Shown: piece after piece, positions 9,678 to 50,204 of the stretch | Layout: each line of letters begins with the position of its first letter | Position numbering within the stretch: the stretch's first letter is position 1 | Notes under the pieces: model-generated | Told to the model about the DNA's origin: nothing | Databases searched by the model: none | Seen by the model: the letters and a program-made list of their open reading frames with translations, nothing else | Program-made: the position numbers and the translations under genes | Assembly (NCBI GenBank): GCA_023380475.1 | Contig: JAMCRD010000005.1 | Span: forward strand, 16,087 to 80,086 | Length of the DNA: 64,000 bases | DNA from: Patescibacteria group bacterium | GTDB lineage: Bacteria; Patescibacteriota; Minisyncoccia; UBA6257; Colwellbacteraceae | Direction of reading: 5' to 3'

Positions 9678-9678
9678 A

Positions 9679-9712: not shown

Positions 9713-9745
9713 TACAGGCAAAGCTATAATGTAACCGCAGTAAAT

Positions 9746-9828: not shown

Positions 9829-9903
9829 CACTAGAAATTTATCGTGGAACCTTTGTAAGGAAACCAAAGTTCATAAAAATCGTAACCCATTAGTTAGCAT
9901 CCA

Positions 9904-10716: not shown

Positions 10717-10754
10717 ACCAATGACATGTCACACGTCGCAAGTCACAGGCTCGG

Positions 10755-11132: not shown

Positions 11133-11145
11133 ACTAGTCCTAAAT

Positions 11146-11174
11146 AAAAGATCCCCAATCGGGGGATCTTTTAT
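11146..11174. terminator. bidirectional terminator hairpin between convergent genes
   Basis: aaaagatcccc aatc gggggatctttt: 11-bp stem flanked by A and T tracts. Confidence 0.65.
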
Positions 11175-11608: not shown

Positions 11609-11683
11609 TAAAAAACTCCCTTCCGGGAATCATTTAATGTAATCTGATCATACCCCCAGAAGGGTATAATAGTCAATAAGACC

Positions 11684-13976: not shown

Positions 13977-14018
13977 CTTTGGAGATACCGTGATGTATTT
14001 GCTACAATCAAAGCACTG

Positions 14019-28381: not shown

Positions 28382-28597
28382 ATGCAAACTGATGAACAGC
28401 TTATTGCGGATTATCTGAGGGGTAACGAGCACGCGCTGCGCTTACTCATTGAGCGTTACCTCAAGCCAATTTACAACTTCGTTTATAGGTACACCGGGGA
28501 GTTCGGCAGTGCTGAAGAGATAGCGCAGGATGTTTTTGCCAAACGTGTTGCCAAAGTGCGAATTGTATATTGTATAATTAAGTGTATATGTCCTTAG
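28382..28597 (+). pseudogene. ECF-type sigma-70 region-2 fragment (truncated; likely gene remnant)
   Basis: EQLIADYLRGNEHALRLLIERYLKPIYNFVYRYTGEFGSAEEIAQDVF matches sigma-70 region 2.1-2.2. The reading frame then degenerates (KVRIVYCIIKCICP) and ends inside the pilin-like gene start. No regions 2.3-4. Confidence 0.4.
28546..28578 (+). promoter_or_regulatory. candidate sigma-70 promoter for the large pilin-like gene (TTGCCA ... TATAAT)
   Basis: TTGCCA at 28546-51 and TATAAT at 28573-78 within an AT-rich TGTATA-repeat tract. The ATG at 28588 is only about 10 nt downstream, so possibly near-leaderless. Confidence 0.4.
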
Positions 28598-29790
28598 TCC
28601 CGAAAGATAAGCGAGGTTTCACTCTTATCGAGCTCCTTTTATATGTGGCTATATTCGCCATTTCGGCCGGGATAATAACCAGCGTTATGGTCAACGCTCT
28701 GCGTATTCAGGGCGGGGAGAACAGCTCCACCGAGGTAAGCAGCCAGCTTAACTACGTGCTGGCGACAGTGCAGCGATTGGTCCAGCAATCCAGCGAAATA
28801 GAGTATGCATACGAAGGTACTTCTACTAGCACCCCTTGCACGACGTTTTGCACACTCGAACTTAGAAATGCCAGCAGCACCCTTGATCCAACTTGGATAA
28901 CGTCCAATGCCAACGGAGTTTATGTCCAGCAAGGTGGGGGAACGCAGGGAGGAGGTACGGTAACGGCTATAACCAATAGCTTGATTACGGTTAATAATCT
29001 CAAATTCACCATTTACACTTTCCCTGGAGGCAATACCACTGTCCAAGTAAATGGATCCTTCGCATATAACACTTCTAATTCCGAACTGGCGGTGACCAAG
29101 ACGCTTGAATCAGCGATAGGGCGTGTTTCCGCCGCAACCTTTGACTCGGCGATATTGCCCACAGTTGATAACTCGCTGAGCATAGGACAGGGCGGTTCTT
29201 CCAATCTTAGGTGGCAAAATATTTATCTTGGTGGCACATTGTATCTTTCTACATCTAGCTTGTTGGGTCTAGGAACCAACTCTACAGACACAAGCGGCCT
29301 TTCATCGCCAGGATTCCTTTACTATAACACAGCGTCGAATACCCTTAGAGTTTTCAATGGTACGACGTGGAGTAACGTATCGCCGTTCGTGGTCAGTGGC
29401 ACGAGTACATATTTCACGGGCGGCAATGTTGGCATAAACACGTCCACTCCAGCCTCAACCTTAGATGTTAATGGTTCCCTATACAGTGAACTTTACGCTC
29501 CAACCTATTCCTCTTCGATGACAATAGATTGGAGTAAAGGTAACACTCAGAAGATAGTTCTCACCGGCAATGCCACCCTTACCTTTACCAACGGCCAGCC
29601 TGGCGGCAAATACAGTCTGATGCTGGTTCAGGATTCTACGGGCGGAAGAACCATTACATGGCCGTCAAACGTCAAATGGTCGGGAGGTACGGCGCCGACC
29701 CTCACCACTACGGCTAATAAAACAGACTTCGTAGGATTTATATTCGGCGGTAGTAACTACTACGGTGTTGGCACGGTACTGAACTTCTGA
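28588..29790 (+). CDS. large type IV pilin-like protein (prepilin-type N-terminus plus ~370-aa Thr/Ser/Gly-rich beta domain)
   Basis: N-terminus MSLVPKDKRGFTLIELLLYVAIFAISAGI: class III signal with G/F cleavage site and E+5. 400 aa. Confidence 0.7.
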   Translation: MSLVPKDKRGFTLIELLLYVAIFAISAGIITSVMVNALRIQGGENSSTEVSSQLNYVLATVQRLVQQSSEIEYAYEGTSTSTPCTTFCTLELRNASSTLDPTWITSNANGVYVQQGGGTQGGGTVTAITNSLITVNNLKFTIYTFPGGNTTVQVNGSFAYNTSNSELAVTKTLESAIGRVSAATFDSAILPTVDNSLSIGQGGSSNLRWQNIYLGGTLYLSTSSLLGLGTNSTDTSGLSSPGFLYYNTASNTLRVFNGTTWSNVSPFVVSGTSTYFTGGNVGINTSTPASTLDVNGSLYSELYAPTYSSSMTIDWSKGNTQKIVLTGNATLTFTNGQPGGKYSLMLVQDSTGGRTITWPSNVKWSGGTAPTLTTTANKTDFVGFIFGGSNYYGVGTVLNF

Positions 29791-29801
29791 CGTTGGATAT
29801 T

Positions 29802-32800
29802 ATGAGTAAAGATAGGTTAAGAAAACTTTTGGGTGCGGCAACGATTGCGGCAGTACTATTATCTATCGTCTCGTTGGTAATACCTGTTAATTTTACTTTC
29901 GCGAGCAATCCGACGGTTACTTCCATCACTCCCAGTTTAGTTGTAAACAGCGGCACGCAGGCTATCTCGTCTGTCGGAGGAACCGGCTTTACTACTGAGA
30001 CGGGGCTCGTGGGTTTATGGAGCCTTGAGGGTAACGCCAATGATTCCAGTGGCAGTGGGAATAACGCCACCGGTTATAATGTGTCTTACGGAACCGCCTA
30101 TGGCAGGTTCGGACAGGGAGCGAGCTTCAACGGAAGCAGCAGCTACATTCAAACTCCCAACCTGTCAGCTATCAATTCTAATACCCAGCCTTATTCAGTC
30201 GCGGTATGGTTTAAAGCTGCGGCCGCGGGAGTAATCGTCGATGAAACCGGTTCGACGTCCATTAATTCGGGTTGGCACCAAAGCTTCATGGAGATCCTAT
30301 CGAGCGGCAGCGTTGCAGTAAGGGTGTATAACCTAAGTACCTTAACCGCTGGAACTGCAACTTTCAATACATGGAATCAAGTCGTATTGACTTATGACGG
30401 CACCACCGTCCGCAGCTACTTAAATGGTGTAGCCGGTGGGACCACAACCGGCACTAGGTCTAGTCCGGGGGCCAGCAGCTATGGAGAGTACTTGAACTTA
30501 GGAGCGACCGATTCTACCAACTTGGGGAGCGGCGCTTGGTTTAGTGGGTCTATCGATGAGTTCCGTGTGTACAGCCGCGTATTATCATCCACCGAGGTAA
30601 CGTCGCTCTATAACCAGAACGGTTTTATCCAAGTCCAGCTTACCAAAACTGGCCAATCGACAGTGACTTGTAATAGTTTCTTTCCGACGAATTCGACTAC
30701 TTTAAGCAATGGTTGGTGTCCGGTAAACAGCATTGCTACAGGACAGTGGAATGTTGTCGTTACAAATCCCGATAACGGTACGGCAACATTGGCCAACGGG
30801 CTTACTGTCACTGCGCCCACGTTTTCATACCGCCGGCCGATAACTGTAAACAACCAATATCCGGAGAATGGTGTGGTAGGAAACTGGCACCTGGACGGAA
30901 ACTCGCAGGACAGCTCTGGTAACGGAAATAATGGTACAGACACATCTGTCACATACGGAACCCAATACGGCAAATTCGGCCAGGGAGCGAGTTTCAATGG
31001 GAGCAATAGTCTTATTTCCCTTCCGAATGGAACTGGCGCCTCGGGAACAACGTGGACAGGTTCATATTGGATCAATTTTACGACTACAGTAAGTCCAAAC
31101 ATAGCCGTAGTATTTGCCGAAAAAAGTTCGAATACGGGGGCGTTTTTTTCGAACATCAATAGGACAGCGATTGGCGCCATTGAGTGTGCAATATATAATA
31201 ATAGTTCCAATTATTATGTCATTTCTGCATCGTCTGGATATAACGATGGTAAGTGGCACAATGTTGTTTGCGTTGAAAACGGTGCAACGCTTTATTTGTA
31301 TATTGATGGTATTCTAAGTAACTCTGGTCCTTCAAGTGGTTTTTCGGTTGTCTATAATTATGGATACCTGGGGGCAAATGGTGGCGGAACGTCTCTAAAC
31401 GGTTCTCTGGACGAGGTGCGTGTCTACAACCGTGCGCTTTCTCCAGCTGAAGTACAAGATCTCTATAGCTACAATACTTCGAGGGTAGCGCTCTCGAATT
31501 ACCCAGTACTTATTCAAAACCCAATCTACAATGAAACCGGTCTTGTGGGTAGCTGGCATATGGAAGGCAACTCGCAAGACAGCTCTGGCAACGGCAACAA
31601 TGGTACCGATACCAACGTGACCTATGGGACTTCGTACGGCGAGTTTGGAAAAGGGGCACACTTTGTAAATGCCTCGCAATCGAAAATCGTTGTTCCATAT
31701 AATTCGGCAATGAATGGAAACTCATGGAGTGTTTCTTTTTGGTTAAAGATAGATAGCGATGTTCCATCGGGGACCGCGATAGCGCGATGGAATTCTCAAG
31801 GTGGAGATGGCAGCAACATCTTTCTGGTTTATGCGAATACAACTGGTCTAACAGGCTTTGGAAGGAACTCATCTAATACCCAATACAGTGTTTCTTATAG
31901 TGGTTCGTTAACGTCTTGGACATATATTGCGATGGTTTGGGATACTTCTGGCGGTTATTTACGCCTTTATATCAATGGCGCAGCCGTATCACCGACTGCC
32001 ATTTCGGGGAATGCCCTAACTGGCACGAGTCCGCTTTGGATTGGAGACGGTTCTCCTAATCCATCAGACACATACACCATCAATGGTGAAATGGACGAGG
32101 TTCGTCTATACAATCGCGTCCTTACTTCAACAGAAATCGCCAATCTTTATGCAGCTCATGCCGCCTTAAATTACCAGGACGTTAGGTTCGTTGATTCTGA
32201 TGGTATAACTCAGCTAAATTTCTATCGTCCGATGGACGGTAAATTCTGGGTTGCAGTTCCCTCGATACCGGTCGGCGTTAAGACGATATATATAGAATAC
32301 GGGAGCTCAAGCGCGACAGATGCTTCTAATCCCGCGTATGCGCCGATGGGTTTAGTGGCAGATTGGAACATGGACGAACCTCTTGTTGGCACTTCGTATG
32401 ACTCAAGCGGCAATAATTATAACGGCACGGATACAAATACCGCTGTTGTTAGCGGTAAATTCGGCAACGCTCAGAGCTTTAACGGGAGCAGTAGCTATAT
32501 AGGTATACCTAATTTACAAACTGGATTATCGTCCATGACAATGAGTGTGTGGATAAATATAACTAATCTAAGTAATGGCGGTAATTTTATAGATTTTAGA
32601 AGTAATGGTGTTACGGCTACGATTCCCTCTATAGGTTTGGGAGTGCTAAGTAGCGGTGTTTTCTATATCTCAAAAGAAACAGCACCGAATTATACGTGGG
32701 AGCAGCTTAATTCAACATCTACCTACCCCATTAATACGTGGCATCATGTTGTTGGAACATACACCAATATTTCTGGGACAGGATACTTGAATCTTTATGT

Positions 32801-34826
32801 CGACGGCTCGCTTGCCGCAACTCAAATGTCTTTTGCTGACGCTGCGAATTCGGTGCCAGAACAGTATTCTACTATAGGAGGAACGAATCATGCCGCTATG
32901 CAAGAAAGTGCTTACCTAGATGAGATCCGTGTCTATAACACTGCCCTGTCTGCTACCCAGGTTCAGCAACTATATAACAACCCTACACTCACACTCGTAC
33001 TTTCCGAAGAACCCAATCCTACTTCTCCAACAGTGTCGACGGTGACGCCTCTTGTGGGATCTCCTACGGGCGGTACGCCTGTTACCATCGGCGGCAGTGG
33101 GTTCAATCAACTGTATCAGGTCCCGATAACTGTTACTAATAACGGCCCAGCCGTTAATGATTACCAAATCCTTGTCCAGAACCCGATTTATAATGAGACA
33201 GGTCTTGTTGGCAGTTGGCACCTAGAGGGTAACTCACTCGATTCTAGCGGTAATAACAATAACGGTACCGATTCCAACGTGACTTACGGTGCTGCATATG
33301 GCGAATATGGCCAGGGAGCTAGTTTTAATGGGAGTAGCAGCGGAATAAGCCTTGGAGCGCCATCTTCTCTTACTTCTCTTTCGGGCAGTTCGATTGTTCA
33401 ATTCGCGGCATGGATATACCTGAAGGCCGTTCCTACGTCTGGCAATAGATTTTATATTATCCGTCAGGGTCAAGAATCGACATCAATGTGGGGAATGAGT
33501 GTGCTTTCTCCCGATGGAACAAATGCCTATCTTACGTTTCGGTCTGCCGCTCCAGGTCAAAATGGGAGAGAGCAGATGTCAAATACGGCAATAACACTGA
33601 ATACGTGGCATTTTGTAACAGCAGAGGCACAAGGGGGGACCGCAACCGCTACTTTATACATCGATGGTGTACAACAGTCCCTAACCCTTGCCGATGGTTC
33701 CAATGCGAACTATGTTTTTTCGTCTTCTTCTGCAAATATTTACATCGGAAGGGATAGTTCTGGAAACTACTGGAATGGATATATAGATGAAGTCCGTGTT
33801 TATAACCGCGTTCTTTCTTCGACTGAAATTACCAATCTCTATCAAGCTCACGCAGCCCCTAATTATCAAAATGTTAGATTCTACGATTCGGATGGCGTGA
33901 CACCCTTGCCATATTGGATGCAACAAGATGGAATGTTTTGGGTACGCGTACCATACATACCAAATGGGAATAAGACTATTTATATCCGATACGGCAATGC
34001 GAATATGACCAGTGGGAGTAATGGCGACGATACATTTCTTATGTTTGATGATTTTAAAAATAATGTAATAGATACAAGTAAGTGGGTGACCCAAATAGCG
34101 GCCGGCTCAATCACAGAAGCTAACGGCTATCTGTCAATATATAGAAATACCGGCGGTACTAATACCATTCAGACAGTAACGGGGCTGTCTTTATCTAACT
34201 ATACCGTGGATTTCGCAGCAAGTGCCGCCTCCGTCGCCAGCAACATACAGCTTGGAATCATGGATGCTAATCAAGCCGATGGTAACGGCTTTTATCCATT
34301 TTTCACATCTGGGAATGTATTCAACATATACAAAAGAACTCCCGGGACATGGACTTTATTACAGGGCAGTGTCGGTAGTTATAATCCAGGCGTTTTCGCT
34401 AACTATAAGATGATTAAAAATGGTTCAAACTTCAGCTTCTATAATAGTAGTGGCCAGATTGGTTCTACGCAGACTATATCAGTTGGCAATATAACTTATT
34501 TATTGGCTCCGAGGGTCTGGAATGAATCTCCTGGAGAAGGCGGCACGCTTGATATTAATAACTTTAGAGTACGTAGATACGCAGCTGTCGAACCCACCAC
34601 TTCTGTCGGTTCCGAAATGGCCGTAGGACCAACGGTAACTTTCGGTGGTACAGCTGCTACCGGAGTTACTTACAACAGTTCCAGCAGTCTAGGTGCGACC
34701 ACGCCAGCCCATGCGCTTGGAGTTGTTGATGTACTTGTCACCAATCCTGATGGGGGGGTTGGTACGCTGACTGGCGGTTTTACGTACGGAGTTGCGTCCA
34801 ATGGCTTTTTCCTGTTATTCGATTAG
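29802..34826 (+). CDS. giant secreted protein (1,675 aa) of alternating DUF2341-like and LamG/ConA-like lectin modules
   Basis: N-terminal signal/TM. Five repeats of LVGxWHLEGNSQDSSGNGNNGTDTNVTYG..YG.FGQGASFNGS...DEVRVYNRxLSxxEIxxLY (LamG_3-like). Interspersed YRRPITV, NYPVLIQN, NYQ[DN]VRFxDSDG...FWVxVPxIPxGxKTIYIxYG motifs (DUF2341-like). Confidence 0.85.
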   Translation: MSKDRLRKLLGAATIAAVLLSIVSLVIPVNFTFASNPTVTSITPSLVVNSGTQAISSVGGTGFTTETGLVGLWSLEGNANDSSGSGNNATGYNVSYGTAYGRFGQGASFNGSSSYIQTPNLSAINSNTQPYSVAVWFKAAAAGVIVDETGSTSINSGWHQSFMEILSSGSVAVRVYNLSTLTAGTATFNTWNQVVLTYDGTTVRSYLNGVAGGTTTGTRSSPGASSYGEYLNLGATDSTNLGSGAWFSGSIDEFRVYSRVLSSTEVTSLYNQNGFIQVQLTKTGQSTVTCNSFFPTNSTTLSNGWCPVNSIATGQWNVVVTNPDNGTATLANGLTVTAPTFSYRRPITVNNQYPENGVVGNWHLDGNSQDSSGNGNNGTDTSVTYGTQYGKFGQGASFNGSNSLISLPNGTGASGTTWTGSYWINFTTTVSPNIAVVFAEKSSNTGAFFSNINRTAIGAIECAIYNNSSNYYVISASSGYNDGKWHNVVCVENGATLYLYIDGILSNSGPSSGFSVVYNYGYLGANGGGTSLNGSLDEVRVYNRALSPAEVQDLYSYNTSRVALSNYPVLIQNPIYNETGLVGSWHMEGNSQDSSGNGNNGTDTNVTYGTSYGEFGKGAHFVNASQSKIVVPYNSAMNGNSWSVSFWLKIDSDVPSGTAIARWNSQGGDGSNIFLVYANTTGLTGFGRNSSNTQYSVSYSGSLTSWTYIAMVWDTSGGYLRLYINGAAVSPTAISGNALTGTSPLWIGDGSPNPSDTYTINGEMDEVRLYNRVLTSTEIANLYAAHAALNYQDVRFVDSDGITQLNFYRPMDGKFWVAVPSIPVGVKTIYIEYGSSSATDASNPAYAPMGLVADWNMDEPLVGTSYDSSGNNYNGTDTNTAVVSGKFGNAQSFNGSSSYIGIPNLQTGLSSMTMSVWINITNLSNGGNFIDFRSNGVTATIPSIGLGVLSSGVFYISKETAPNYTWEQLNSTSTYPINTWHHVVGTYTNISGTGYLNLYVDGSLAATQMSFADAANSVPEQYSTIGGTNHAAMQESAYLDEIRVYNTALSATQVQQLYNNPTLTLVLSEEPNPTSPTVSTVTPLVGSPTGGTPVTIGGSGFNQLYQVPITVTNNGPAVNDYQILVQNPIYNETGLVGSWHLEGNSLDSSGNNNNGTDSNVTYGAAYGEYGQGASFNGSSSGISLGAPSSLTSLSGSSIVQFAAWIYLKAVPTSGNRFYIIRQGQESTSMWGMSVLSPDGTNAYLTFRSAAPGQNGREQMSNTAITLNTWHFVTAEAQGGTATATLYIDGVQQSLTLADGSNANYVFSSSSANIYIGRDSSGNYWNGYIDEVRVYNRVLSSTEITNLYQAHAAPNYQNVRFYDSDGVTPLPYWMQQDGMFWVRVPYIPNGNKTIYIRYGNANMTSGSNGDDTFLMFDDFKNNVIDTSKWVTQIAAGSITEANGYLSIYRNTGGTNTIQTVTGLSLSNYTVDFAASAASVASNIQLGIMDANQADGNGFYPFFTSGNVFNIYKRTPGTWTLLQGSVGSYNPGVFANYKMIKNGSNFSFYNSSGQIGSTQTISVGNITYLLAPRVWNESPGEGGTLDINNFRVRRYAAVEPTTSVGSEMAVGPTVTFGGTAATGVTYNSSSSLGATTPAHALGVVDVLVTNPDGGVGTLTGGFTYGVASNGFFLLFD

Positions 34827-34891
34827 GATTGTCTGGCGTAAAAAGCCACATTGAGATAACTGTATAATCGCCTGTGTTATAATCTAGGCGC

Positions 34892-35977
34892 ATGTTTAAC
34901 GTTTTTAAGCCGCTGACGTCGTTGGTCAGCCATAAAAGTTATCTGGGGGTTGATATAGGCACCACTTCGATAAAAGTGGTTGAACTCAGCGATGCCAGCG
35001 AGAAACCGACTTTGAGGAACTACGGCGTTCTGGAAAGCTACGGTCACCTAGAGCGCCTTAACAACGCCATTCAGACGCCGACTCTCAAGATGCTGGATCG
35101 GGAAACAGCCGATTTGCTGATGACGCTGGTCAAGCAGCTTAATCTGAAGACAGTTGATGCCGTGGCCTCTCTCCCGTCATTCACAGCTTTTATGGCTCCA
35201 CTGGAAATGCCGGTGATGTCCTCTCAAGAAACTGTCCAGGCTATGCAGTATCAGGCTAGGCAGTTCGTTCCTCTCCCCATATCGGAAATCACCTTGGATT
35301 GGATTCCGGTGGGTGAGTATACCAACGAGAAGGGGAGCAAGATGCAACGTTTTTTCTTGATATCTGTTCCCAACGAGCAAATACGGAAATACCAGCGCAT
35401 CTTCAAAGCCGCTGGCCTTAACCTTATAGCCTTGGAGGTGGAGGATCTCAGTCTGGCCCGCATCCTGACCAGCGGTGATCCGACCCTCACCTTGATAGTC
35501 GATATTGGTGCACGTTCGACAGCAATCATGGTTGCTAAAAACGGGATCCTTAAGGGCAGCGGCCAGACCGACTTCGCTGGAGGTTCGCTGACTCAAGCCG
35601 TGTCAGGCGGTTTGGGCATAAACGTACGCCGGGCTGAGGAGCTCAAGAAACAAAGAGGCTTGATGGGCAGTGGGGGAGAGTACGAACTTTCCACTTTAAT
35701 GCTGCCCTTCTTGGATGTTATACTTAGTGAGGTTAAAAGGGTGCGGGACGATTATGAAAAAACGTATCGCGAGAAGATTGAACGCATCATAGTCTCAGGG
35801 GGAGGAGCTAACCTCTTGGGGATTGAGAAGTATATGGGTGATGCCTTCGGTCTGCCTGTGGCTAAGGCCGATCCGTTTTCTAAAATAATTTCCCCGCCGG
35901 AGGTAGCTCCGTTGGTTAGCGAGCTAGGACCACCTTTTTCCGTAGCAATCGGGCTCGGCATCAGACAATTTATATAG
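34892..35977 (+). CDS. pilM: type IV pilus assembly protein PilM (actin-like ATPase fold)
   Basis: N-terminal LGVDIGTTSIKVVELS, second actin-fold motif IVDIGARSTAI. Two TATAAT boxes (34863-68, 34880-85) just upstream. Confidence 0.85.
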   Translation: MFNVFKPLTSLVSHKSYLGVDIGTTSIKVVELSDASEKPTLRNYGVLESYGHLERLNNAIQTPTLKMLDRETADLLMTLVKQLNLKTVDAVASLPSFTAFMAPLEMPVMSSQETVQAMQYQARQFVPLPISEITLDWIPVGEYTNEKGSKMQRFFLISVPNEQIRKYQRIFKAAGLNLIALEVEDLSLARILTSGDPTLTLIVDIGARSTAIMVAKNGILKGSGQTDFAGGSLTQAVSGGLGINVRRAEELKKQRGLMGSGGEYELSTLMLPFLDVILSEVKRVRDDYEKTYREKIERIIVSGGGANLLGIEKYMGDAFGLPVAKADPFSKIISPPEVAPLVSELGPPFSVAIGLGIRQFI

Positions 35978-35989
35978 GGACGCATAAAA

Positions 35990-36532
35990 ATGGCATACAC
36001 GCGGGATACAAACGAACAGTTTATGCAAGATCGTGTATCAGTAAGTTGGCCATGGAGGCTACTCCTCACAACCGGCGTTCTCTTGGGGTTCGTCTTGGTT
36101 GTATACGCTGGCCTGACATTGGGCTACGAGACTTATCTCAACAGCTCGATAAGTTCTCTGAATTCTAAACTTGATTCGCTAAGCTTGCAGGTGTCACCCG
36201 CGGATCGCCAGGGATTCACATCTTTTTATTCTCAGCTTACCAATCTCCAAAAATTGCTCGGTTCGCACGTGGTGTCCTCGCAGGTGTTTCCGCTGTTCGA
36301 AGGCATGACGGATCCGAATGTCGTGTACAATTCCTTCAACTTGTCCGTTCCAGACAACGCCGTGAGCATAAGCGGCACGGCTCAAGATTATGCCACGCTG
36401 GCCAACCAACTCTATCTATACAAACAATCCCCTCAAGTCAGCAGCGTTATTTTGGAAAGTTCTTCGCTGTCAGGTAAGGTCGTCGCCTTCACCATAAAAT
36501 TAACTCTCAACCATGCGGGCCTCAACTTATAG
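35990..36532 (+). CDS. pilN: type IV pilus assembly protein PilN-like
   Basis: Short cytoplasmic N-terminus, one TM helix, periplasmic coiled/beta region. Position after pilM. Confidence 0.6.
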   Translation: MAYTRDTNEQFMQDRVSVSWPWRLLLTTGVLLGFVLVVYAGLTLGYETYLNSSISSLNSKLDSLSLQVSPADRQGFTSFYSQLTNLQKLLGSHVVSSQVFPLFEGMTDPNVVYNSFNLSVPDNAVSISGTAQDYATLANQLYLYKQSPQVSSVILESSSLSGKVVAFTIKLTLNHAGLNL

Positions 36533-37082
36533 GTTAGCTTCCATATTGGGTAGTCTGGTTTTTCTCGTATTGGCGATCGTGTGTTATACGAGCTTGGTTG
36601 TGCCGGCTTATGATCAGGTCCAGAACTTGCGCGGCGAACAGACAGGTATCCAAACGACCATAGCTCAAGATCAGCAGGCGGTGTCTGTCGTCAACAACCT
36701 CTTGGGTCAGTATCAGAGCTTATCTCAATTCAGGGATAGTATATCGCAGGTACTGCCGACCGCGGACAACATGGACACGGCAGGCATTGTGTACCAGATT
36801 CAGGGCCTAGCTGGCTCGCGAGGGCTGACCCTGCAATCGCTTACCTTGCAGAATCTACCGACGCAGGCTATTTCGTCCGATCAGCTGGTCAGCCCCGTCG
36901 GATCCATCCAGATATCCCTGACGTTGAGCGGTCCTTACCAAAATTTCAAAGCATTCTTGGGAGACTTAGAAACTAACATCCGCCTTATGGATGTATCCTC
37001 TATAAATATCTCCGGTGGTGGTTCGGCTACCAACAGTAACCTTGTTTATGCGATGGTCGTTAAGACATATTATCAACAATAG
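36513..37082 (+). CDS. pilO: type IV pilus assembly protein PilO-like
   Basis: TM helix plus coiled-coil and a C-terminal beta domain. Gene order pilM-N-O. Confidence 0.55.
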   Translation: MRASTYRLASILGSLVFLVLAIVCYTSLVVPAYDQVQNLRGEQTGIQTTIAQDQQAVSVVNNLLGQYQSLSQFRDSISQVLPTADNMDTAGIVYQIQGLAGSRGLTLQSLTLQNLPTQAISSDQLVSPVGSIQISLTLSGPYQNFKAFLGDLETNIRLMDVSSINISGGGSATNSNLVYAMVVKTYYQQ

Positions 37083-37084
37083 CC

Positions 37085-37381
37085 ATGGCCATAGTCGTCG
37101 AAGGCGAGAAGCAAAAAAGTCCCATAACCACTGTAGTGGTCGTGATTATCGTATTGATCATAGTGGCTTTCGGCAGTTACTATCTTTTCTTTAGCCCGGC
37201 CCCGGCTATTCAAAACATCGTAGTCCCGGCCGATCTCCAGTCGATAGATCAAACATCCAAGATCGATATAAGTGTGGTTCAATCTCTGGCGTCGTCGACT
37301 GCTTACACTAATCTGAAGGTACTGGTCCCACCCCAACAAGTTAATGGGTACGGTCGCTCTGATCCGTTTCAACCGTACTAA
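37085..37381 (+). CDS. small single-TM pilus-locus protein (possible PilP-like)
   Basis: TM helix VVVVIIVLIIVAFGSYYLFF, short periplasmic tail ending GRSDPFQPY. Translationally coupled to pilB. Confidence 0.4.
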   Translation: MAIVVEGEKQKSPITTVVVVIIVLIIVAFGSYYLFFSPAPAIQNIVVPADLQSIDQTSKIDISVVQSLASSTAYTNLKVLVPPQQVNGYGRSDPFQPY

Positions 37382-39114
37382 TGGACGACAAAACGTTGAT
37401 TGAGGCGCTGATCAAGAAGTCGTTGCTGCTTCCGGAAAGCGGTCAAAAGTTGCTGACCGAGGCAGCCCAAGTAAAACAGCCGGTCGAAGCTCTAATTTAT
37501 GGTCGCCGCCTAGTTGACGAAGTCGAGGTGGCCAAGGTTAAGAGCGAACTTTTAGGCATACCTTACAAGCCGGTTGATTTTGATAAGATCCCGGACGATC
37601 TCCTTAAACTGATACCGGAAGAGACGGCTCAAACTTACCGCGTCATTCCGCTTTCGCGCGACGCCAAAATGCTGGTAATCGGTATGGTTAATCCCAGCGA
37701 TACGAGAGCTCAAGAGGCGTTAAGGTTCATCGCCAAGCAGAACCGGATAAGCTTGGGGGTTTACATAGTTACCCCCTCCGATCTTGAGCTCGTTCTGCAG
37801 CGGTACCACCCCTATCAATCGGAGGTACAATCGGCGCTCAGTTCCTTGAATATAAAACCTGGTAAAAATGAGGTACAGCGGATAATCCAGATCGAGGAAG
37901 GATCGTCGGTTTCAGAGGACGCTCCTATCATAAAGATAGTAGCGTCTACCCTAAGATCGGCGGTCGAGGAGAACGCATCAGATATTCATATTGAGCCGCA
38001 GCGTTCTAGGCTGCGCATCCGTTTCAGGACAGACGGTATATTGAAGGAGGTGGCTTCGTTGCCGCTAGAGCTGGCGCAGCCGGTGGTCTCGCGGGTGAAG
38101 GTGCTGTCCAGCTTGAAGATAGACGAGACAAGAATCCCGCAGGACGGACGTTTTCGGACGGTGGTTTTCGGCCGAGACATAGACTTTCGCGTTTCTACTT
38201 TTCCGACGCCGGCCGGTGAAAAAGTGGCCATACGTGTTTTGGACCCAACGGTAGGATTGAAAGGCGTAGATAATCTAGGCCTGGTCGGACGCAACTCGGA
38301 TCTTGTTACTTCGGCTCTCAAGAGGCCTTACGGAATGATTTTGGTCACTGGGCCCACTGGTTCAGGTAAGACAACCACTCTTTACGCCTTGCTCCAAGTT
38401 TTGAACACAGAAGCAGTCAACATTCTGAGTTTGGAAGACCCGGTTGAGTATTTTGTTGACGGCTTGAACCAATCGCAGGTGCGGCCGGAGATTGGCTATG
38501 ACTTCGCCTCAGGTTTGCGGCAGATTGTACGTCAGGACCCGGATGTCATAATGGTCGGAGAAATACGTGATACCGAAACGGCTAAGTTGGCTGTGCAGGC
38601 AGCTCTGACGGGACAGATAGTTCTATCCACCTTGCATACCAACAATGCCGTTGGTGTCATCCCGAGGCTGGTTGATATGGGGGTCGAGTCATTCCTTTTA
38701 CCGACATCTCTTAATCTTATGGTGTCACAGCGCCTGGTGCGCCGTTTGTGCGATTCGTGTAAAAAAGCAGAGGAAGCGACACCAGACATGCAGGAGTTAA
38801 TTGAAAAGGAGTTAGGGTTGTTGCCGACTGAGGCGCGTAAGAACATTAAATACAGCAAGCCGTTTAAGATATACCACGCTCCGGGTTGTAAGGTTTGCAA
38901 GGGGAAGGGTGCCATCGGACGTATTGCCCTCTTTGAGGTGATGACTATGACTAGAGAGCTAGAGGAGGCTGTGGCTTCAGGCGTAGAAGAAAGCAAGATA
39001 ATCGACGAAGCCAAACGGCAGGGGATGATTACTCTTCGTCAGGACGGAATACTCAAGGCCTTGGATGGCGTGGTAAGCATGGAGGAAGTGCTCCGCGAGA
39101 GCACGGAGTCGTGA
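37381..39114 (+). CDS. pilB: type IV pilus assembly ATPase PilB (GspE family)
   Basis: N-terminal GSPII_E_N-like domain, Walker A GPTGSGKTTT, Asp/His boxes, C-terminal tetra-Cys zinc motif (CDSCK...CKVCKGKG). Confidence 0.9.
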   Translation: MDDKTLIEALIKKSLLLPESGQKLLTEAAQVKQPVEALIYGRRLVDEVEVAKVKSELLGIPYKPVDFDKIPDDLLKLIPEETAQTYRVIPLSRDAKMLVIGMVNPSDTRAQEALRFIAKQNRISLGVYIVTPSDLELVLQRYHPYQSEVQSALSSLNIKPGKNEVQRIIQIEEGSSVSEDAPIIKIVASTLRSAVEENASDIHIEPQRSRLRIRFRTDGILKEVASLPLELAQPVVSRVKVLSSLKIDETRIPQDGRFRTVVFGRDIDFRVSTFPTPAGEKVAIRVLDPTVGLKGVDNLGLVGRNSDLVTSALKRPYGMILVTGPTGSGKTTTLYALLQVLNTEAVNILSLEDPVEYFVDGLNQSQVRPEIGYDFASGLRQIVRQDPDVIMVGEIRDTETAKLAVQAALTGQIVLSTLHTNNAVGVIPRLVDMGVESFLLPTSLNLMVSQRLVRRLCDSCKKAEEATPDMQELIEKELGLLPTEARKNIKYSKPFKIYHAPGCKVCKGKGAIGRIALFEVMTMTRELEEAVASGVEESKIIDEAKRQGMITLRQDGILKALDGVVSMEEVLRESTES

Positions 39115-39127
39115 TACAATAACAAAT

Positions 39128-40198
39128 ATGGATTACAAGCAAAAACTTAACGATTTGTTGCTAACCACCGCCAGACAGAATGCGTCCGATTTGCACATAG
39201 CCGTAGGACGCAAGCCAACCCTCAGGGTTGATGGTGTGCTGATCGGTCTACAGAAAGAGGATATTCTCACTCCCGAGGACGCTCAGGGATTAGTCTTGAC
39301 CATGCTGACCGAGGAGCAGAAGCAAAAGCTTGTAAAGTACGGCGACGTCGATTTTTCATACACCTTTGAAGACAAGGCCCGCTTCAGGGTGAACGCCTTC
39401 TTCCAGCGCGGCTTTATGGCCGCGGCGCTGAGGCTAATACCGGCTGGCATACGTACGGTAGAAGAATTGCGTTTGCCGCCAATCCTGCATGAATTTACCA
39501 AAATAAATCAGGGCTTCGTCCTGGTTGTCGGTCCGGCTGGCCAAGGCAAGTCAACGACGCTGGCGGCACTCTTGGATGAGATTAACCACAAGCGGACTGA
39601 CCACATTATCACCATTGAGGACCCAATCGAATATCTTTTCGTGCAGGATCGGTCTATCGTCTCGCAACGCGAGATAATGACCGACAGCCCTTCTTTCCAT
39701 CGCTCGTTGCGGTCGCTTCTAAGGCAAGATCCGGACGCGGTGATGATAGGGGAGATGCGCGACCCGGAAACGATGTCCACGGCGATGACGGCGGCTGAAA
39801 CAGGCCACTTGGTTTTTTCGACTTTGCACACCAACTCGGCAGCGCAGACAATAGACCGCATTATCGATTCGTTCCCAGCCGAGCAGCAGGGTCAGATCAT
39901 GTCCCAGTTGGCAGCGACCTTGGTGGGCATAGTCTCGCAGCGTCTCATTCCGCGCATTGATGGCGGCCGTACGCCGGCTTGCGAAGTAATGTTCACCAAT
40001 TCGGCCATTCGCAATCTCATTCGTGAGCGCAAGGTTTACCAGATCGACTTGGTTATTGAGACCAGCCTGCAGGAGGGCATGACAAGCTTGAACCGCTCGC
40101 TGGCGGAGTTGATCAAGCGCAAGGAAATTTCTTTGGAAAATGGGGAACTTTATTCACTTAACCCCTCCGAACTCAGGATACTGCTGGAGCGTATGTGA
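39128..40198 (+). CDS. pilT: twitching-motility retraction ATPase PilT
   Basis: Walker A GPAGQGKSTT, PilT N-terminus (DLHIAVGRKPTLRVDG), AIRNLIRE motif. Confidence 0.9.
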   Translation: MDYKQKLNDLLLTTARQNASDLHIAVGRKPTLRVDGVLIGLQKEDILTPEDAQGLVLTMLTEEQKQKLVKYGDVDFSYTFEDKARFRVNAFFQRGFMAAALRLIPAGIRTVEELRLPPILHEFTKINQGFVLVVGPAGQGKSTTLAALLDEINHKRTDHIITIEDPIEYLFVQDRSIVSQREIMTDSPSFHRSLRSLLRQDPDAVMIGEMRDPETMSTAMTAAETGHLVFSTLHTNSAAQTIDRIIDSFPAEQQGQIMSQLAATLVGIVSQRLIPRIDGGRTPACEVMFTNSAIRNLIRERKVYQIDLVIETSLQEGMTSLNRSLAELIKRKEISLENGELYSLNPSELRILLERM

Positions 40199-40225
40199 TC
40201 CCCGTGATAGGGAAGATTGTAAGCA

Positions 40226-41434
40226 ATGAAGCTTAATTATAAGGCTCGAACCAAAGAAGGTGAGCTACAAGTTGGCTCAATTGAGGCTGCTTCACGGGAG
40301 GCAGCCATGAATATCCTGTCCAGCCACGATCTCTTTATCCTTTCACTGGAACAGGAAAAACAAGGTCGCTGGTACGACCAGATCATGGCCTTTATGAATC
40401 GGGTCAAGGCCAAGGACATGATGGTTTTCACCAGGCAGTTTGCCACCCTGCTCTCGGCGCAGGTTCCATTAGGTGAGGCTCTGCGCACTCTCCAAAAGCA
40501 GACCAAGAACCAGATACTCAAGGAAACCATCTTCGAGGTTGCCTCGGATATCGATGCTGGCCTGTCTCTGTCCCAATCGCTGGAGAAGTATAGCAACGTG
40601 TTCTCGCCGTTTTATGTGAACATGATCCGATCAGCTGAAGTCACGGGCCGGATGGAACAAACCACTGGTTTCTTGGCGGATTACATTGAGAAGGAAGTCG
40701 CCATAACTTCCCGGGTTTATAATGCCCTGCTTTACCCGGCGTTCATGATCGTTTTGTTCGTAGTTGTCGCGGCTATCATGGCCATCTTTGTACTGCCTCA
40801 GATTGAACCAATTTTTAGCCAGGCCGGTGTGCCGACGCCTCTGTTTACTCAGGTGATAATCGATGCCGGCAATATCCTAGCTAACTGGTGGTACATAGTG
40901 ATAATTGCCATTGTCGCCTTGGTTGGGTTCGTGGCCGACTATCTTAGGACCGAAGAAGGACGAGTGGTCTTGGACGAAGTGGTCTTGCGCATACCAGTGG
41001 TAAACAACCTTTTGAAAAAAATGTACGTATCACGTTTCGCCGAGTCGGTGAGTATCCTCACCCGCGGCGGTATTCCTATAGCCCAAAGTTTAGAGATAGC
41101 CGGGCAAACGATAGGTAGCATCATTTATCGCGACACACTCCACCAAACAGCCGAGGATGTAAGGCGGGGAGAACTGTTATCCCAGTCTTTGGCTAAGAAT
41201 GAGGAATATTTTCCGCCGCTGGTGTCGCAGATGGTGGCGGTAGGCGAATCAACTGGGCGGCTCGACGACCTGCTGGAGAAGATAGCCGCGTTTTACACCA
41301 GGGAAGTTGATGGAGTCGTGGCTAATTTAGTAGAATTAATACAGCCTGTATTGATGTTGATAATCGGTATTTTGGTCGCAGCGATGTTCGCTTCCATCCT
41401 TGTGCCGATATATAATCTATTGCATACCTTCTAA
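40226..41434 (+). CDS. pilC: type IV pilus inner-membrane platform protein PilC (GspF family)
   Basis: Two GspF repeats and three TM segments. Typical length (402 aa). Confidence 0.9.
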   Translation: MKLNYKARTKEGELQVGSIEAASREAAMNILSSHDLFILSLEQEKQGRWYDQIMAFMNRVKAKDMMVFTRQFATLLSAQVPLGEALRTLQKQTKNQILKETIFEVASDIDAGLSLSQSLEKYSNVFSPFYVNMIRSAEVTGRMEQTTGFLADYIEKEVAITSRVYNALLYPAFMIVLFVVVAAIMAIFVLPQIEPIFSQAGVPTPLFTQVIIDAGNILANWWYIVIIAIVALVGFVADYLRTEEGRVVLDEVVLRIPVVNNLLKKMYVSRFAESVSILTRGGIPIAQSLEIAGQTIGSIIYRDTLHQTAEDVRRGELLSQSLAKNEEYFPPLVSQMVAVGESTGRLDDLLEKIAAFYTREVDGVVANLVELIQPVLMLIIGILVAAMFASILVPIYNLLHTF

Positions 41435-41440
41435 TTAACT

Positions 41441-41947
41441 ATGAATAAGGGCCAGCGAGGTTTTACGCTTATCGAAATGCTGATCGTCATCGCAATCATC
41501 GCGATCCTTTCGGCCATAGTATTGACCAGTGTAAGCAGTTTCCAGGCCAGTGCCAGGGATACGGCGAGAGTAGGCAATCTCAAGAACATTGAGAGTTATC
41601 TAGAACTCTTCTACAACAAATGCGGTTACTATCCTGGCTATCAAGGCGGTAGCTCCAGCTGCAATGCGACGCTACAGGGTTGGGGCGACCTATCCACCCT
41701 GATGGCCAACGTTGGCGTAACTAGCCAACTTCCCAAGGATCCGTCGGCCGGAAGGTCATTCTGCTATGGGGTAAGCAGCGACGGTAACAGTTATATAGTC
41801 GGTACGGTACTGGAGAGTAGCAACAGTGTTCTCAATAACAACGGTACTGGCCCAAGCAGCACTAGCAGTGTTACCTCCTTGCAAATACTAGGTAACCCTA
41901 CCTGTGGTGGTAACAATAGTGCAACCACCTATTGGATTAACTCTTAA
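41441..41947 (+). CDS. pilA: type IV pilin (candidate major pilin)
   Basis: MNKGQRGFTLIEMLIVIAIIAILSAIVL prepilin signal. 168 aa. Immediately upstream of pilD. Confidence 0.8.
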   Translation: MNKGQRGFTLIEMLIVIAIIAILSAIVLTSVSSFQASARDTARVGNLKNIESYLELFYNKCGYYPGYQGGSSSCNATLQGWGDLSTLMANVGVTSQLPKDPSAGRSFCYGVSSDGNSYIVGTVLESSNSVLNNNGTGPSSTSSVTSLQILGNPTCGGNNSATTYWINS

Positions 41948-41979
41948 GCCGTTGATATAAAGCTCTGCTGAATACTGTA

Positions 41980-42843
41980 TTGTACATACTGCTGTTTATC
42001 TTTGGGCTGGCTATAGGCAGTTTTATTAACGTTGTCGCTTTGCGCTACCGGGAGGGTAAAAGCATCTTCGCAGACATCTACGGACGATCGCATTGTCCAC
42101 ATTGCGGCAAGACGCTGCGTTGGTACGAACTGATGCCGCTCGTGTCCTTCGTCATCCAAGGCGGCCGCTGCCGTTCCTGCCACGAGCGTATATCTTGGCA
42201 GTACCCGATAGTGGAACTTATCGCCGGACTTATATTGGTCTTAGTGCCTTATCGCCTGATGTCTTTCTATCACGGCATTTATTCTCCCTATCTGCCTATA
42301 TTCATCTGGGTGATAGCTTTCCTGACACTATTACTGATCGCAGCGATAGATTTCAGAAAAAGAATCATCCCAGATAGCCTGACGATATTCATTGCCTCAC
42401 TCGGGGTGGCCATGTTCTTCATCCACGCGTCTTTAGGCGACTTTGGACTTAGCAATGGCCTGATCGGTGGGACGTTTTTAGGTAGCTACGCTTTGATTCT
42501 CTTCTGGGGCAGTTCGTTGCTGGTCAATACTCTATTGGGGCTAGCCTTTGGTTTGGTCTTTGTAGGCTTGGTCTATATTTTGTCGCGCGGTCGGGGTATA
42601 GGTTTTGGCGATGTTAAGCTTGCTGCAGCGACCGGCTTGCTTATGGGCTGGCCGGATATAGCGTTGGCTCTGATCTTGGCCTTTATAATTGGAGGGATAA
42701 TCGGAGGCCTGCTTATGTTGCTGCGCCATAAATCAGGACAAGATTCGGTACCATTCGGACCGTTTATCGCCGCAGGTATTACCTTAGTCTTCTTTTTGGG
42801 GTACGATATTCTTAATGCGTACTTCTATCTATTTAAGCTCTGA
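41980..42843 (+). CDS. pilD: prepilin peptidase PilD (A24 family) with N-terminal zinc-binding CxxC pairs
   Basis: CPHCGKTLRWYELMPLVSF...GRCRSC, catalytic Asp-containing TM regions. Apparent TTG start at 41980. Confidence 0.85.
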   Translation: MYILLFIFGLAIGSFINVVALRYREGKSIFADIYGRSHCPHCGKTLRWYELMPLVSFVIQGGRCRSCHERISWQYPIVELIAGLILVLVPYRLMSFYHGIYSPYLPIFIWVIAFLTLLLIAAIDFRKRIIPDSLTIFIASLGVAMFFIHASLGDFGLSNGLIGGTFLGSYALILFWGSSLLVNTLLGLAFGLVFVGLVYILSRGRGIGFGDVKLAAATGLLMGWPDIALALILAFIIGGIIGGLLMLLRHKSGQDSVPFGPFIAAGITLVFFLGYDILNAYFYLFKL

Positions 42844-43420
42844 GACGCAGGTTAGAAGCCGCAGAACTGCGGGTTTTACTCTGATAGAAATACTCGTTAC
42901 TCTGGGCATCTTGGCTGTTCTATCCGCAGTTATGATAGGTTATTCGGCCGAGACCGGCCGTCAGACGTTCATGCTCCTTACTAGGGAACAGATAATACAG
43001 CTATTAAACAGGGCCAAGGCTAACTCGCTGGCGGCATATTCATCAGGCAACGGCGTCCAGAATATGACCACCTGCGGCTACGGAGTGCATGTCGATAGAT
43101 CATCAGGCACACTGTTTGTGTTTCAGAGCAGCTCGGCGGATTGCAACGCCCGGAGCGACTATAGTTTCTCTTCAAGTACCGATACTGTTTTAAGTGGCTC
43201 GATAGACTCATACCAGATCGATCCAACCAAGTTGCAACTTATATCCAACGCTACCACTACTCTGTTGCAGGACGTTGTTTTCACTTCGCCCAACGAGCTG
43301 ACGTATATAAACGGTGGCGATACGGTTACAGCAGCCGGCATTAAGCTGGAGCTTGTAAGCGATCCCAACGAAAAGATAGAGGTTGACGTAAACAATGCGG
43401 GACAAATTAGCTGGCAATAA
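42815..43420 (+). CDS. minor (pseudo)pilin
   Basis: AGFTLIEILVTLGILAVLSAV prepilin-type N-terminus. The long N-terminal extension suggests the true start lies downstream of 42815. Confidence 0.65.
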   Translation: MRTSIYLSSETQVRSRRTAGFTLIEILVTLGILAVLSAVMIGYSAETGRQTFMLLTREQIIQLLNRAKANSLAAYSSGNGVQNMTTCGYGVHVDRSSGTLFVFQSSSADCNARSDYSFSSSTDTVLSGSIDSYQIDPTKLQLISNATTTLLQDVVFTSPNELTYINGGDTVTAAGIKLELVSDPNEKIEVDVNNAGQISWQ

Positions 43421-43934
43421 CCAGGGACAATTGCTTATCGAAGCCATGGTGGCCATGGGCGTGATATCAGTGGGGCTACTGGGCGTATTCTCGGTGCTAT
43501 CCAACTCTCTTGGTATAAGCAAGATTACTTCCAATCAGTATGTCGGCACCTACTTAGCCGCCGAAGGGATCGAGGTTGTGAAGAACATAATCGACAACAA
43601 TGTCTACAATCAGGTCTCGGGTGGGTGGAACGCCGGCTTAGTCCAAAACGGTGGCTCGCCCTACACCTTCGCCGTTGAGTATGATAGTCCAGCTCCAAAT
43701 CAATCTGAGTCAAGGAGATCTTTCCAGTCGACCGATTTTCTTAGATTCGATTCCAGTACGGGCCTTTACGACTATAACCCCTCAGACAGTCAGACTACAT
43801 TCAAAAGGGCGGTGACTGTTACTAGTTTGGATTCTAACAACGAACTACAGGTGGATTCAGTTGTGAGCTGGGTCGACCAAGGAGGAACGCCGGACTCGGT
43901 AAAACTAGAAGACGTCTTCTATAACTGGCGATGA
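43395..43934 (+). CDS. minor pilin (PilV/GspI-like)
   Basis: GQLLIEAMVAMGVISVGLLGV prepilin-like N-terminus. Confidence 0.6.
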   Translation: MRDKLAGNNQGQLLIEAMVAMGVISVGLLGVFSVLSNSLGISKITSNQYVGTYLAAEGIEVVKNIIDNNVYNQVSGGWNAGLVQNGGSPYTFAVEYDSPAPNQSESRRSFQSTDFLRFDSSTGLYDYNPSDSQTTFKRAVTVTSLDSNNELQVDSVVSWVDQGGTPDSVKLEDVFYNWR

Positions 43935-44470
43935 GCATAAATAAATCTGTCCCCAAATCAGGTTGGCAAAGTGGTTTCACTCTCATTGAGCTGATGGTAG
44001 CTATGGCTATATTTCTTATACTTATCTCTTTGTCGACGGCGATATTCATTCAGACGTTGCGTACGCAGCAGGAAATTACAAACATAACTGGGAACAACGA
44101 AAGCGCCTCGGAGGTCTTGGAGCAGATATCGCGCGATGTACGCACGGGAACCAATTTTTCCATACCTGATCAGCACACCCTGACGTTTCTTAGTGCGCAA
44201 TTTCTTGGTAAGCAAGGAAATTACCAGATAGTAGGATACAAACTGGTGGGGGATGCCATCGCCCGCTGTTTAGGCGGAAAGTGCCAGCAGGGTACGTATG
44301 ATCCTATTACTCCTCCGGGGGTTAACATAGCCGATATGAGTTTCTGGGGTATGAATTTGACCTCGGGTATTCCGCGCATAACCATTACCATTGCTGTAAC
44401 AACCCCGACCGGCGCACAGCCGCAAGTTGATACCTATCTTGAGACGACAATCAGTGCCAGAAACTACTAA
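43931..44470 (+). CDS. minor pilin (PilW/GspJ-like)
   Basis: SGFTLIELMVAMAIFLILISL prepilin N-terminus. Overlaps the upstream gene by ATGA. Confidence 0.65.
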   Translation: MSINKSVPKSGWQSGFTLIELMVAMAIFLILISLSTAIFIQTLRTQQEITNITGNNESASEVLEQISRDVRTGTNFSIPDQHTLTFLSAQFLGKQGNYQIVGYKLVGDAIARCLGGKCQQGTYDPITPPGVNIADMSFWGMNLTSGIPRITITIAVTTPTGAQPQVDTYLETTISARNY

Positions 44471-50040: not shown

Positions 50041-50111
50041 GCCGGTGTAGCTTAATGGTAAAGCAGAGCCCTCATAAAGCTCGGAAGGAGGTCCGATTCC
50101 TCCCATCGGCA
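50041..50111 (+). tRNA. tRNA-Met(CAT), elongator type
   Basis: Acceptor GCCGGTG/CATCGGC (1-72 paired), anticodon loop CTCATAA, T-arm GGAGGTCCGATTCCTCC. Confidence 0.75.
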
Positions 50112-50133
50112 CTATAAATAATCAGATAAGTTG

Positions 50134-50204
50134 TTGCGGGGGCGGGAGTCGAACCCACTCCTGAAGCTTATGGGGCTTCCGAGGTACCGTTCCTCTACCC
50201 CGCG
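50134..50204 (-). tRNA. tRNA-fMet(CAT), initiator type
   Basis: The reverse complement begins CGCGGGGTAGAGG and ends CCCCGCAAC, like E. coli tRNA-fMet. C1:A72 mismatch and A11:U24 present. Anticodon loop CCCATAA (C33). Lacks the 3 G-C pairs in the anticodon stem. Confidence 0.7.

Follow-up and report, generated by a model that had tools for sequence, protein, structure and literature searches.

Much is still to be learned about how ultrasmall episymbiotic bacteria reach their hosts and stay attached to them. This analysis concerns a giant protein carrying DUF2341 and LamG domains at the head of a type IV pilus locus in a Patescibacteria group bacterium (Colwellbacteraceae). The DNA analysed here, referred to as the window, is a stretch of 64,000 nucleotides (nt) (GenBank assembly GCA_023380475.1, contig JAMCRD010000005.1, positions 16,087 to 80,086 of the forward strand), and all coordinates are those of the window unless another locus is named. 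The gene for the protein, hereafter the giant, is placed between a prepilin-type gene of 400 amino acids (aa; 11-nt gap) and pilM (65-nt gap), as described in an earlier note made from the sequence alone. We assign a probability of roughly 0.5 to the reading that the giant is a fast-evolving, exported multi-lectin adhesin, docked on the fibre tip of the adjacent pilin and displayed on a retractable pilus for binding of host or substrate glycans. Pili with LamG lectins and type IV pilus loci that encode DUF2341 proteins have both been described before. What appears to be new is the cassette of a phage-fibre-tipped pilin and a separate multi-LamG/DUF2341 partner, which mirrors a phage gene pair; no description of such a pilin/tail-fibre/LamG cassette was found in the searchable literature.

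The giant is encoded by a real, uninterrupted open reading frame (ORF). The earlier note had called it a 1,675-aa DUF2341/LamG protein; its length is 1,674 aa plus a stop codon, and the profile searches that the note proposed were significant for both families. Pfam matched Laminin_G_3 (PF13385) above threshold in five stretches (E 3.8e-106, 352 bits) and DUF2341 (PF10102) in two (E 2e-33, 115.1 bits against a gathering cut-off of 23.4), together with weak TIG matches and overlapping ConA-superfamily models. An identical protein is recorded from three contigs, and the corresponding NCBI entry (P0001) reads 'MAG: DUF2341 domain-containing protein [Patescibacteria group bacterium]'; a domain-level annotation of the giant thus pre-exists this analysis. 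The parts of the gene, all on the plus strand, are as follows.

29802-34826, plus strand: the giant, a predicted exported multi-domain protein of 1,674 aa, starting 11 nt past the pilin stop codon
29802-29912, plus strand: Sec-type signal peptide or signal anchor, aa 1-37 (MSKDRLRKLL, 19 hydrophobic residues, then NFTFA/SN), judged by inspection
29991-30617, plus strand: LamG1, aa 64-272, free-standing (Pfam and module alignments)
30822-32336, plus strand: DUF2341 domain 1, aa 341-845 (Pfam; spliced sequence aligned), with YRRPITVNN, NYPVLIQNPIYNETG and AHAALNYQDVRF...IYIEYG as its own pieces
30858-31472, plus strand: LamG2, aa 353-557, inserted in DUF2341 domain 1
31542-32156, plus strand: LamG3, aa 581-785, inserted in DUF2341 domain 1
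32337-32981, plus strand: LamG4, aa 846-1060, free-standing (Pfam and module alignments)
33108-34091, plus strand: DUF2341 domain 2, aa 1103-1430
33204-33848, plus strand: LamG5, aa 1135-1349, inserted in DUF2341 domain 2
34092-34601, plus strand: beta-rich region, aa 1431-1600, possibly ConA-like (faint PF06439 match in the ortholog P0002 only)
34620-34823, plus strand: C-terminal TIG/IPT domain, aa 1607-1665 (TIG E 6e-04), and tail, aa 1666-1674

Residues 1431-1600 of the window protein gave no family match in Pfam. The giant was rejected as a type IV pilin itself, with no prepilin GFTLxE motif at its N-terminus by inspection and no N_methyl match in Pfam.

The domain order differs from the five DUF2341-LamG pairs that had been read from the sequence. 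Only two DUF2341 domains are present, LamG1 and LamG4 stand alone, and the motifs YRRPITV, NYPVLIQN or DYQILVQN, and NYQxVRF...IYIxYG are successive pieces of just those two domains. The N-terminal DUF2341 strands (Y-R-x-P-I-T-V and L-x-D-Y-Q-V-x-V) are present, split from the Pfam core by LamG insertions, and when the LamG sequences are spliced out both domains align colinearly with the uninterrupted DUF2341 of three other proteins (P0258, P0281 and P0257). On sequence grounds, one DUF2341 domain is split by two LamG domains (LamG2 and LamG3) and the other by LamG5. The structure prediction proposed for one module gave a confident AlphaFold2 model of aa 1100-1440 (predicted local distance difference test score, pLDDT, 82; predicted template modelling score, pTM, 0.75), in which the two N-terminal strands, 220 residues ahead of the remaining domain, are also confident; from the splice-out alignment and this confidence we infer that the split strands pair. 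Composite DUF2341/LamG modules are not rare, as about 35 of the 150 best representative clusters cover the whole composite (approximately residues 6-330).

The LamG parts of the giant have the jelly-roll fold. In the model, the LamG portion resembles pentraxins, the lectin-like Hc-N domains of clostridial neurotoxins, the lectin module of PilC (a minor pilin of S. sanguinis) and carbohydrate-binding modules from glycoside hydrolases and sialidases. This match is consistent with carbohydrate binding, short of proof. The likeness to hydrolase modules, with a faint 3-keto-disaccharide-hydrolase-like match in an ortholog, would also suit a secreted protein that binds or degrades glycans for nutrient scavenging and has no part in attachment. 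However, neither Pfam nor NCBIfam detected a catalytic domain in the giant, its architecture consists of binding and spacer modules only, and the gene is linked to a pilin; we consider scavenging improbable.

The last nine residues of the giant (SNGFFLLFD, aa 1666-1674, 34797-34823) are kept in four of four orthologs. Among 291 proteins scanned the motif occurred in P0001-P0003 only, and the fourth ortholog (L003) has it according to the alignment. The tail is shorter than a membrane helix needs and resembles no recognised sorting signal.

High nucleotide identity among five near-identical modules had led the earlier note to propose a hotspot for recombination or phase variation. Neither the identity nor the hotspot was borne out. 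The five LamG domains share 32-46% pairwise protein identity, the longest exact nucleotide match between any two LamG modules is 9-12 nt, Tandem Repeats Finder reported no tandem repeats, and the sole family of direct repeats is a 119-nt stretch at 61-71% identity. With modules diverged at the DNA level and no tandem repeats, the argument for a hotspot of homologous recombination or phase variation falls away. The gene is also unlikely to be an artefact of assembly, because the identical protein comes from three contigs and the DNA lacks long internal repeats that could have collapsed. The gene does hold five paralogous LamG modules, their number varies between orthologs (the window giant has one LamG more than P0002), and a G7 homopolymer lies inside it at 34752-34758; these are the points in favour of a repeat-driven hotspot or a mis-assembled array. 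The G7 run, however, is 24 codons ahead of the stop and is not kept in orthologs (NPDGGVG versus NPDGTLG or NPDGSVG), and together with the short exact matches and the identical protein on three contigs this leaves such an explanation scarcely credible. The window contains only two G or C runs of at least 7 nt, one of which is this G7.

The partner of the giant is encoded directly upstream.

28588-29790, plus strand: modular minor pilin ('pilinX'), 400 aa, with an N_methyl motif

This protein, unlike the giant, has the features of a type IV pilin, beginning with a class III signal (MSLVPKDKRG/FTLIELL). Its AlphaFold2 model (pLDDT 84.5) consists of an alpha1 helix, a pilin head, a low-confidence linker, a beta stalk and a C-terminal beta-sandwich (aa 300-399) that is very confident. 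The head is GspJ/XcpW-like, and heads of this type are the kind located at the filament tip. The C-terminal module (approximately aa 286-400) is annotated as PF26209 (Phage_phiTE_241_C) in the precomputed Pfam annotation of the identical protein; our local Pfam scan of the pilin did not report PF26209. The same module matches PHROG tail-fibre families at E 1e-7 to 1e-11, and a Foldseek search of a viral structure library with the pilin model returned 264 proteins at E<=0.001, with cores of about 110 residues superposing at 1.6-2.7 A. PF26209 is a phage tail-fibre C-terminal domain and lies at the extreme C-terminus in nearly all proteins that carry it. A pilin N-terminus was found in 0 of 160 PF26209 proteins outside this clade. 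Because no PF26209 protein among those 160 is a pilin, the grafting of the fibre tip onto a pilin looks specific to the clade.

The same pilin head recurs across Patescibacteria with swappable C-terminal modules of phage-fibre type, namely Peptidase_S74, glycine-rich, beta-helix and C1q modules (P0127, P0134, P0135, P0142, P0146, P0147, P0151, P0224, and L005 7188-9161). By their sequences these look like a family of 'fibre-tipped' minor pilins, of which those with S74 modules had been noted earlier (PMC8179133). A fusion of another kind was seen in P0258 (490 aa, on a 1.8-kb contig), in which a true type IV pilin (GFTLIELL) is joined to an uninterrupted DUF2341 and one LamG; it came from the homology search with one module, which otherwise returned mostly short LamG proteins.

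Pilin and giant stay together in relatives. They are adjacent, with gaps of 0-35 nt, in four of four related loci (the window, L001, L002 and L003/L004). The two closest homologues of the giant have 47% and 43% identity, and the third was reached through the pilin. L001 has the gene order of the window through pilC. In L002 unrelated genes fill the 6.7 kb that separate the pair from pilM further downstream. In L003/L004 it lies between Rnf/NQR-type genes and a PaaX-like gene, with no pil gene within the fetched flanks. A fifth locus, L005, is as close to the window as L001 by machinery identity (PilT 93%, PilB 85%, PilM/B/T/C 84-93%) and has the pil operon, but lacks the giant. Directly 5' of its pilM is a pilin with the same head (63% over aa 1-296) and a different, glycine-rich C-terminal module of 360 aa. 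We rejected this module as a fused version of the giant, finding no similarity between the two. The giant was thus found only beside a PF26209-bearing pilin (four of four loci), and L005 and L010, whose pilins have other C-terminal modules, are without it. The synteny survey was made by individual look-ups; a profile search of genome contigs with the four-ortholog alignment returned one locus, on the same contig as L001.

The conserved unit is therefore the upstream modular minor pilin together with the giant, and not the giant with pilM-pilB, to which it is linked in only part of the clade. This amends the proposal of a pilus-linked adhesin or lectin, which is still the best reading, and gives a mixed outcome for the co-occurrence with pilM-pilB that had been suggested as a check: it is seen in L001 and, at 6.7 kb, in L002, and fails near L003/L004, near the distant giants described below and in L005. 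More distant DUF2341/LamG giants of other Patescibacteria (L007, L008 of Dojkabacteria, L009 of Komeilibacteria) are not flanked by pil genes. In L008 (10001-24443) and L009 (1-20992) they form tandem arrays of two to four paralogues (1,661-2,676 aa), again with no nearby pil genes.

A parallel to the pilin-giant pair was found in phage and metagenome loci. The PF26209 module was searched in metagenome and viral contigs, giving more than 540 confirmed matches per collection, and the best 80 loci were kept from each. All ORFs of the kept loci were scanned with LamG and DUF2341 hidden Markov models, and a LamG ORF sharing the strand of the PF26209 ORF was counted as paired when it started between -200 and +600 nt from that ORF's stop codon. 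Among loci with enough downstream sequence, a LamG ORF lay directly downstream in 31 of 141; the count on the upstream side was 0 of 112. Other LamG ORFs numbered 8 in 1,175 kb of flanks, and about 0.8 would be expected downstream by chance (Poisson P ~1e-38, uncorrected for relatedness among loci). The 31 partners form 27 clusters at 60% identity and have one, two, three or five LamG domains; three examples were confirmed by Pfam. Examples of the pair are 5982-8282 followed by 8296-10338 in L137, 983-1579 followed by 1593-3659 in L105, and 3970-4815 followed by 4782-8306 in L163. In L106 a single viral ORF (7497-9005) carries PF26209 (aa 180-269) and then LamG (aa 280-485). The giant and the phage partners share PHROG families (phrog_8510 at E 4.5e-49 and phrog_3545 at E 2.8e-44 for the giant). 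In three loci a non-pilin PF26209 protein is followed by a partner that contains DUF2341.

L012, 1891-2961 (PF26209), then 2969-3874 (DUF2341 and PA14)
L024, 4032-8267 (PF26209), then 10554-14888 (four DUF2341 and LamG)
L041, 6786-8306 (PF26209), then 8725-9858 (DUF2341 and LamG)

The phage pair and the window agree in the two domain families, their order, the strand and the near-zero gap (11 nt in the window). They differ in that the upstream protein is a type IV pilin in the window and a virion fibre in the phages, and in that the giant, 2-7 times larger than the phage LamG partner, also has DUF2341, TIG and a predicted Sec signal. No description of the phage pair of PF26209 fibre and LamG protein was found in the literature.

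The divergence of the locus bears on which of its proteins might face outward. Identity between the window and L001 is 95% for PilT, 85-86% for PilB, PilM and PilC, 62% for the pilin and 46% for the giant, the minimum of the locus. Within the giant, the DUF2341 and TIG parts are 52-80% conserved between orthologs, and the LamG bodies mostly 24-46%, with one pair at 70%. The combined share of Gly, Ala, Ser and Thr, used as a criterion for exposed pilus proteins (PMC11623550), is 41% in the giant, 40-44% in the pilins and 25-26% in PilB and PilT. The fast divergence and this composition support an exposed, probably ligand-binding role for the giant.

From these observations we infer export, glycan binding, docking on the pilin, a tip location and a role in host attachment for the giant. 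It would be exported through Sec, its signal being judged by inspection, and it has five LamG jelly-rolls, three of them inside two DUF2341 sandwiches, with Ig/TIG spacers. It may then dock on the PF26209 tip domain of the GspJ-like minor pilin, which we propose by analogy with phages, where LamG genes follow immediately behind those for PF26209-tipped fibres. Shown in this way at the end of a pilus driven by PilB and PilT, the variable LamG domains could attach to glycans on the surface of a host cell or substrate, towards which the retracting pilus would then draw the cell. The episymbiotic lifestyle assumed in the earlier note derives from taxonomy only.

Several points weigh against docking on the pilus. 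Physical contact between the giant and the pilin is suggested by analogy with the phage genes, for whose products the L106 fusion is indirect evidence of association, and the giant has neither a prepilin signal nor a PilY1-type carrier domain. PF26209-LamG pairing is frequent and not obligatory, because a LamG gene is missing downstream of about 78% of the PF26209 fibre genes. Giants of the DUF2341/LamG class can function without a pilus, given that the distant ones form tandem arrays far from pil genes. The pilin-PF26209 fusion and the giant come from one narrow clade, with four non-independent loci and one species representative in the genome collection.

The main rival is an adhesin or envelope protein that stands free on the cell surface, reaching it through Sec and kept there by its N-terminal anchor or its C-terminal tail. 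It would share regulation or selection with the pilin without being attached to the pilus. A Sec-type N-terminus without a pilin motif, the conserved C-terminal tail and the tandem arrays away from pil genes all suit such a protein, and giant DUF2341 proteins of Patescibacteria have generally been discussed as adhesion or host-interaction proteins (PMC11809585). It leaves unexplained, however, why the giant stays with the PF26209 pilin outside the pil operon, why loci whose pilin ends in a different module lack it, and why phages have the same gene order (31/141 loci) and a PF26209-LamG fusion. We regard a free-standing adhesin as possible, if somewhat unlikely, and the adhesin docked on the pilin as plausible, unproven and better grounded than before.

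Non-pilin proteins at pilus tips offer a further comparison. PilY1/PilC proteins are likewise large, non-pilin and Sec-exported, are thought to ride a minor-pilin tip complex and have variable adhesive N-terminal modules. The giant is encoded beside a GspJ-like minor pilin as PilY1 is with minor pilins (PMC8179133, PMC4858521), and it might similarly act as a priming factor, entering the minor-pilin complex and being indispensable for pilus assembly to begin. Against this, no PilY1/PilC beta-propeller domain was detected in the giant by Pfam or NCBIfam, the giant is the fastest-evolving gene of the locus, and L005 has machinery 84-93% identical to that of the window without it. Membership of the PilY1/PilC family was rejected on the missing propeller and on L005. 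Because L005 keeps the whole pil locus without the giant, genomic comparison suggests that the giant is not required for pilus assembly, and a priming role is very improbable, even a little more so than scavenging.

Other known systems share single features with the giant. The statement that DUF2341 is known mostly from MotA/TolQ/ExbB-type contexts was incomplete. It is an N-terminal appendage of such proteins (PMC12505986), and they resemble the giant in the DUF2341 domain only; membership was rejected, as there is no MotA/ExbB domain in the giant or its neighbours. In 2016, Makarova et al. (PMC4858521) suggested a tip-adhesin role for the DUF2341 proteins of archaeal type IV pilus loci, and an M. 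maripaludis gene of this kind was struck repeatedly in a transposon screen for pilus-dependent transformation (PMC10133366). The archaeal Epd loci (Methanococcus; arCOG03508) similarly have a large non-pilin DUF2341 protein in or beside a type IV pilus cluster. The giant differs in being bacterial, in having LamG nested in DUF2341 and in being paired with a phage-fibre-tipped pilin; the comparison covers domain content and gene position. TafC, a LamG-bearing subunit, is located at the tip of a surface filament, the haloarchaeal Tat-fimbria (PMC11821415). The NCBIfam TafC model (NF052521) matched the giant at E 2.4e-32 over its LamG part only (112.5 bits against a 410-bit cut-off); membership was rejected on this score and for want of a TafA-like donor-strand domain and a Tat signal.

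Lectins on pili have precedents. PF13385 and S74 modules have been described in modular pilins (PMC8179133), S. sanguinis PilC is an established case of a LamG/ConA-like lectin on a type IV pilus (PMC9934059, PMC8179133), and the lectin-like minor pilins PilX1 and PilX2 of Saccharibacteria TM7x, for which LamG/ConA-like lectins were suggested, serve host binding (PMC11623550). In PilC, PilX1 and PilX2 the lectin is fused to the pilin, whereas in the window the lectins are on a separate, putatively Sec-exported protein and the pilin has a phage-fibre tip.

One extension of docking on the pilus is that a phage receptor-binding cassette, consisting of a fibre tip and its cognate LamG partner, was grafted onto the tip minor pilin, so that the pilus would act as a reusable 'tail fibre' and swapping of the C-terminal module and its partner would retarget host range. 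The L005 variant suggests such retargeting; we hold this extension only tentatively, as less probable than the docking itself. In cultured Saccharibacteria, host attachment was recently shown to involve type IV pili and lectin-like minor pilins (PMC11623550). If the giant does ride the fibre-tipped pilin, host recognition in this clade would depend on a swappable two-gene cassette that phages have as well. It would be a concrete, testable determinant of host range and would exemplify an exchange of receptor-binding parts between phages and cellular pili. If docking is wrong, the giant would be one more variable DUF2341/LamG surface protein of Patescibacteria. The occurrence of a PF26209-tipped fibre followed by a LamG protein in phages is in itself a lead for phage receptor-binding biology.

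The remaining features of the locus concern the pilus machinery and the promoter-like boxes on either side of the pair.

28573-28578, plus strand: promoter-like TATAAT box about 10 nt 5' of the pilin ATG, read in the sequence
34874-34882, plus strand: extended -10-like box TGnTATAAT (TGTTATAAT), 9 nt 5' of the pilM ATG
34892-44470, plus strand: pilM, pilN, pilO, a 98-aa ORF, pilB, pilT, pilC, the major pilin (168 aa), the prepilin peptidase and three minor pilins

The near-leaderless, promoter-like elements that the earlier note placed on both sides of the giant are present as TATAAT-type boxes before the pilin and pilM. Neither box was scored as a complete promoter in a consensus promoter scan, which counted 11 promoter-like sites in the region against 22 in shuffles and thus showed no enrichment. 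Because a TGnTATAAT box lies 9 nt before its start codon, pilM may begin a separate, near-leaderless transcription unit.

The 98-aa ORF between pilO and pilB (37085-37381) has no family match. As both its position and its sequence (52-72% identity) are kept in L001, L002 and L005, it may be an unrecognised component of the pilus machinery. Upstream of the pilin, positions 28382-28540 hold a remnant of an extracytoplasmic function (ECF) sigma-70 gene, its first 53 codons only, 81% identical to the intact gene in L001. By comparison with L001, about 6.6 kb are absent from the window between a tRNA-Ser gene and the pilin promoter region, comprising the remainder of the sigma gene, two small ORFs, a membrane-fusion protein, an ABC ATPase, a MacB/FtsX permease and two further small ORFs.

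The remainder of the window contains housekeeping genes and eleven tRNAs. GyrB (51595-54816) is split by an intein (Intein_splicing, aa 446-870) between its GyrB and Toprim domains, and at 50041-50204 a pair of tRNA-Met (CAT) genes occupies opposite strands with 20 nt between them.

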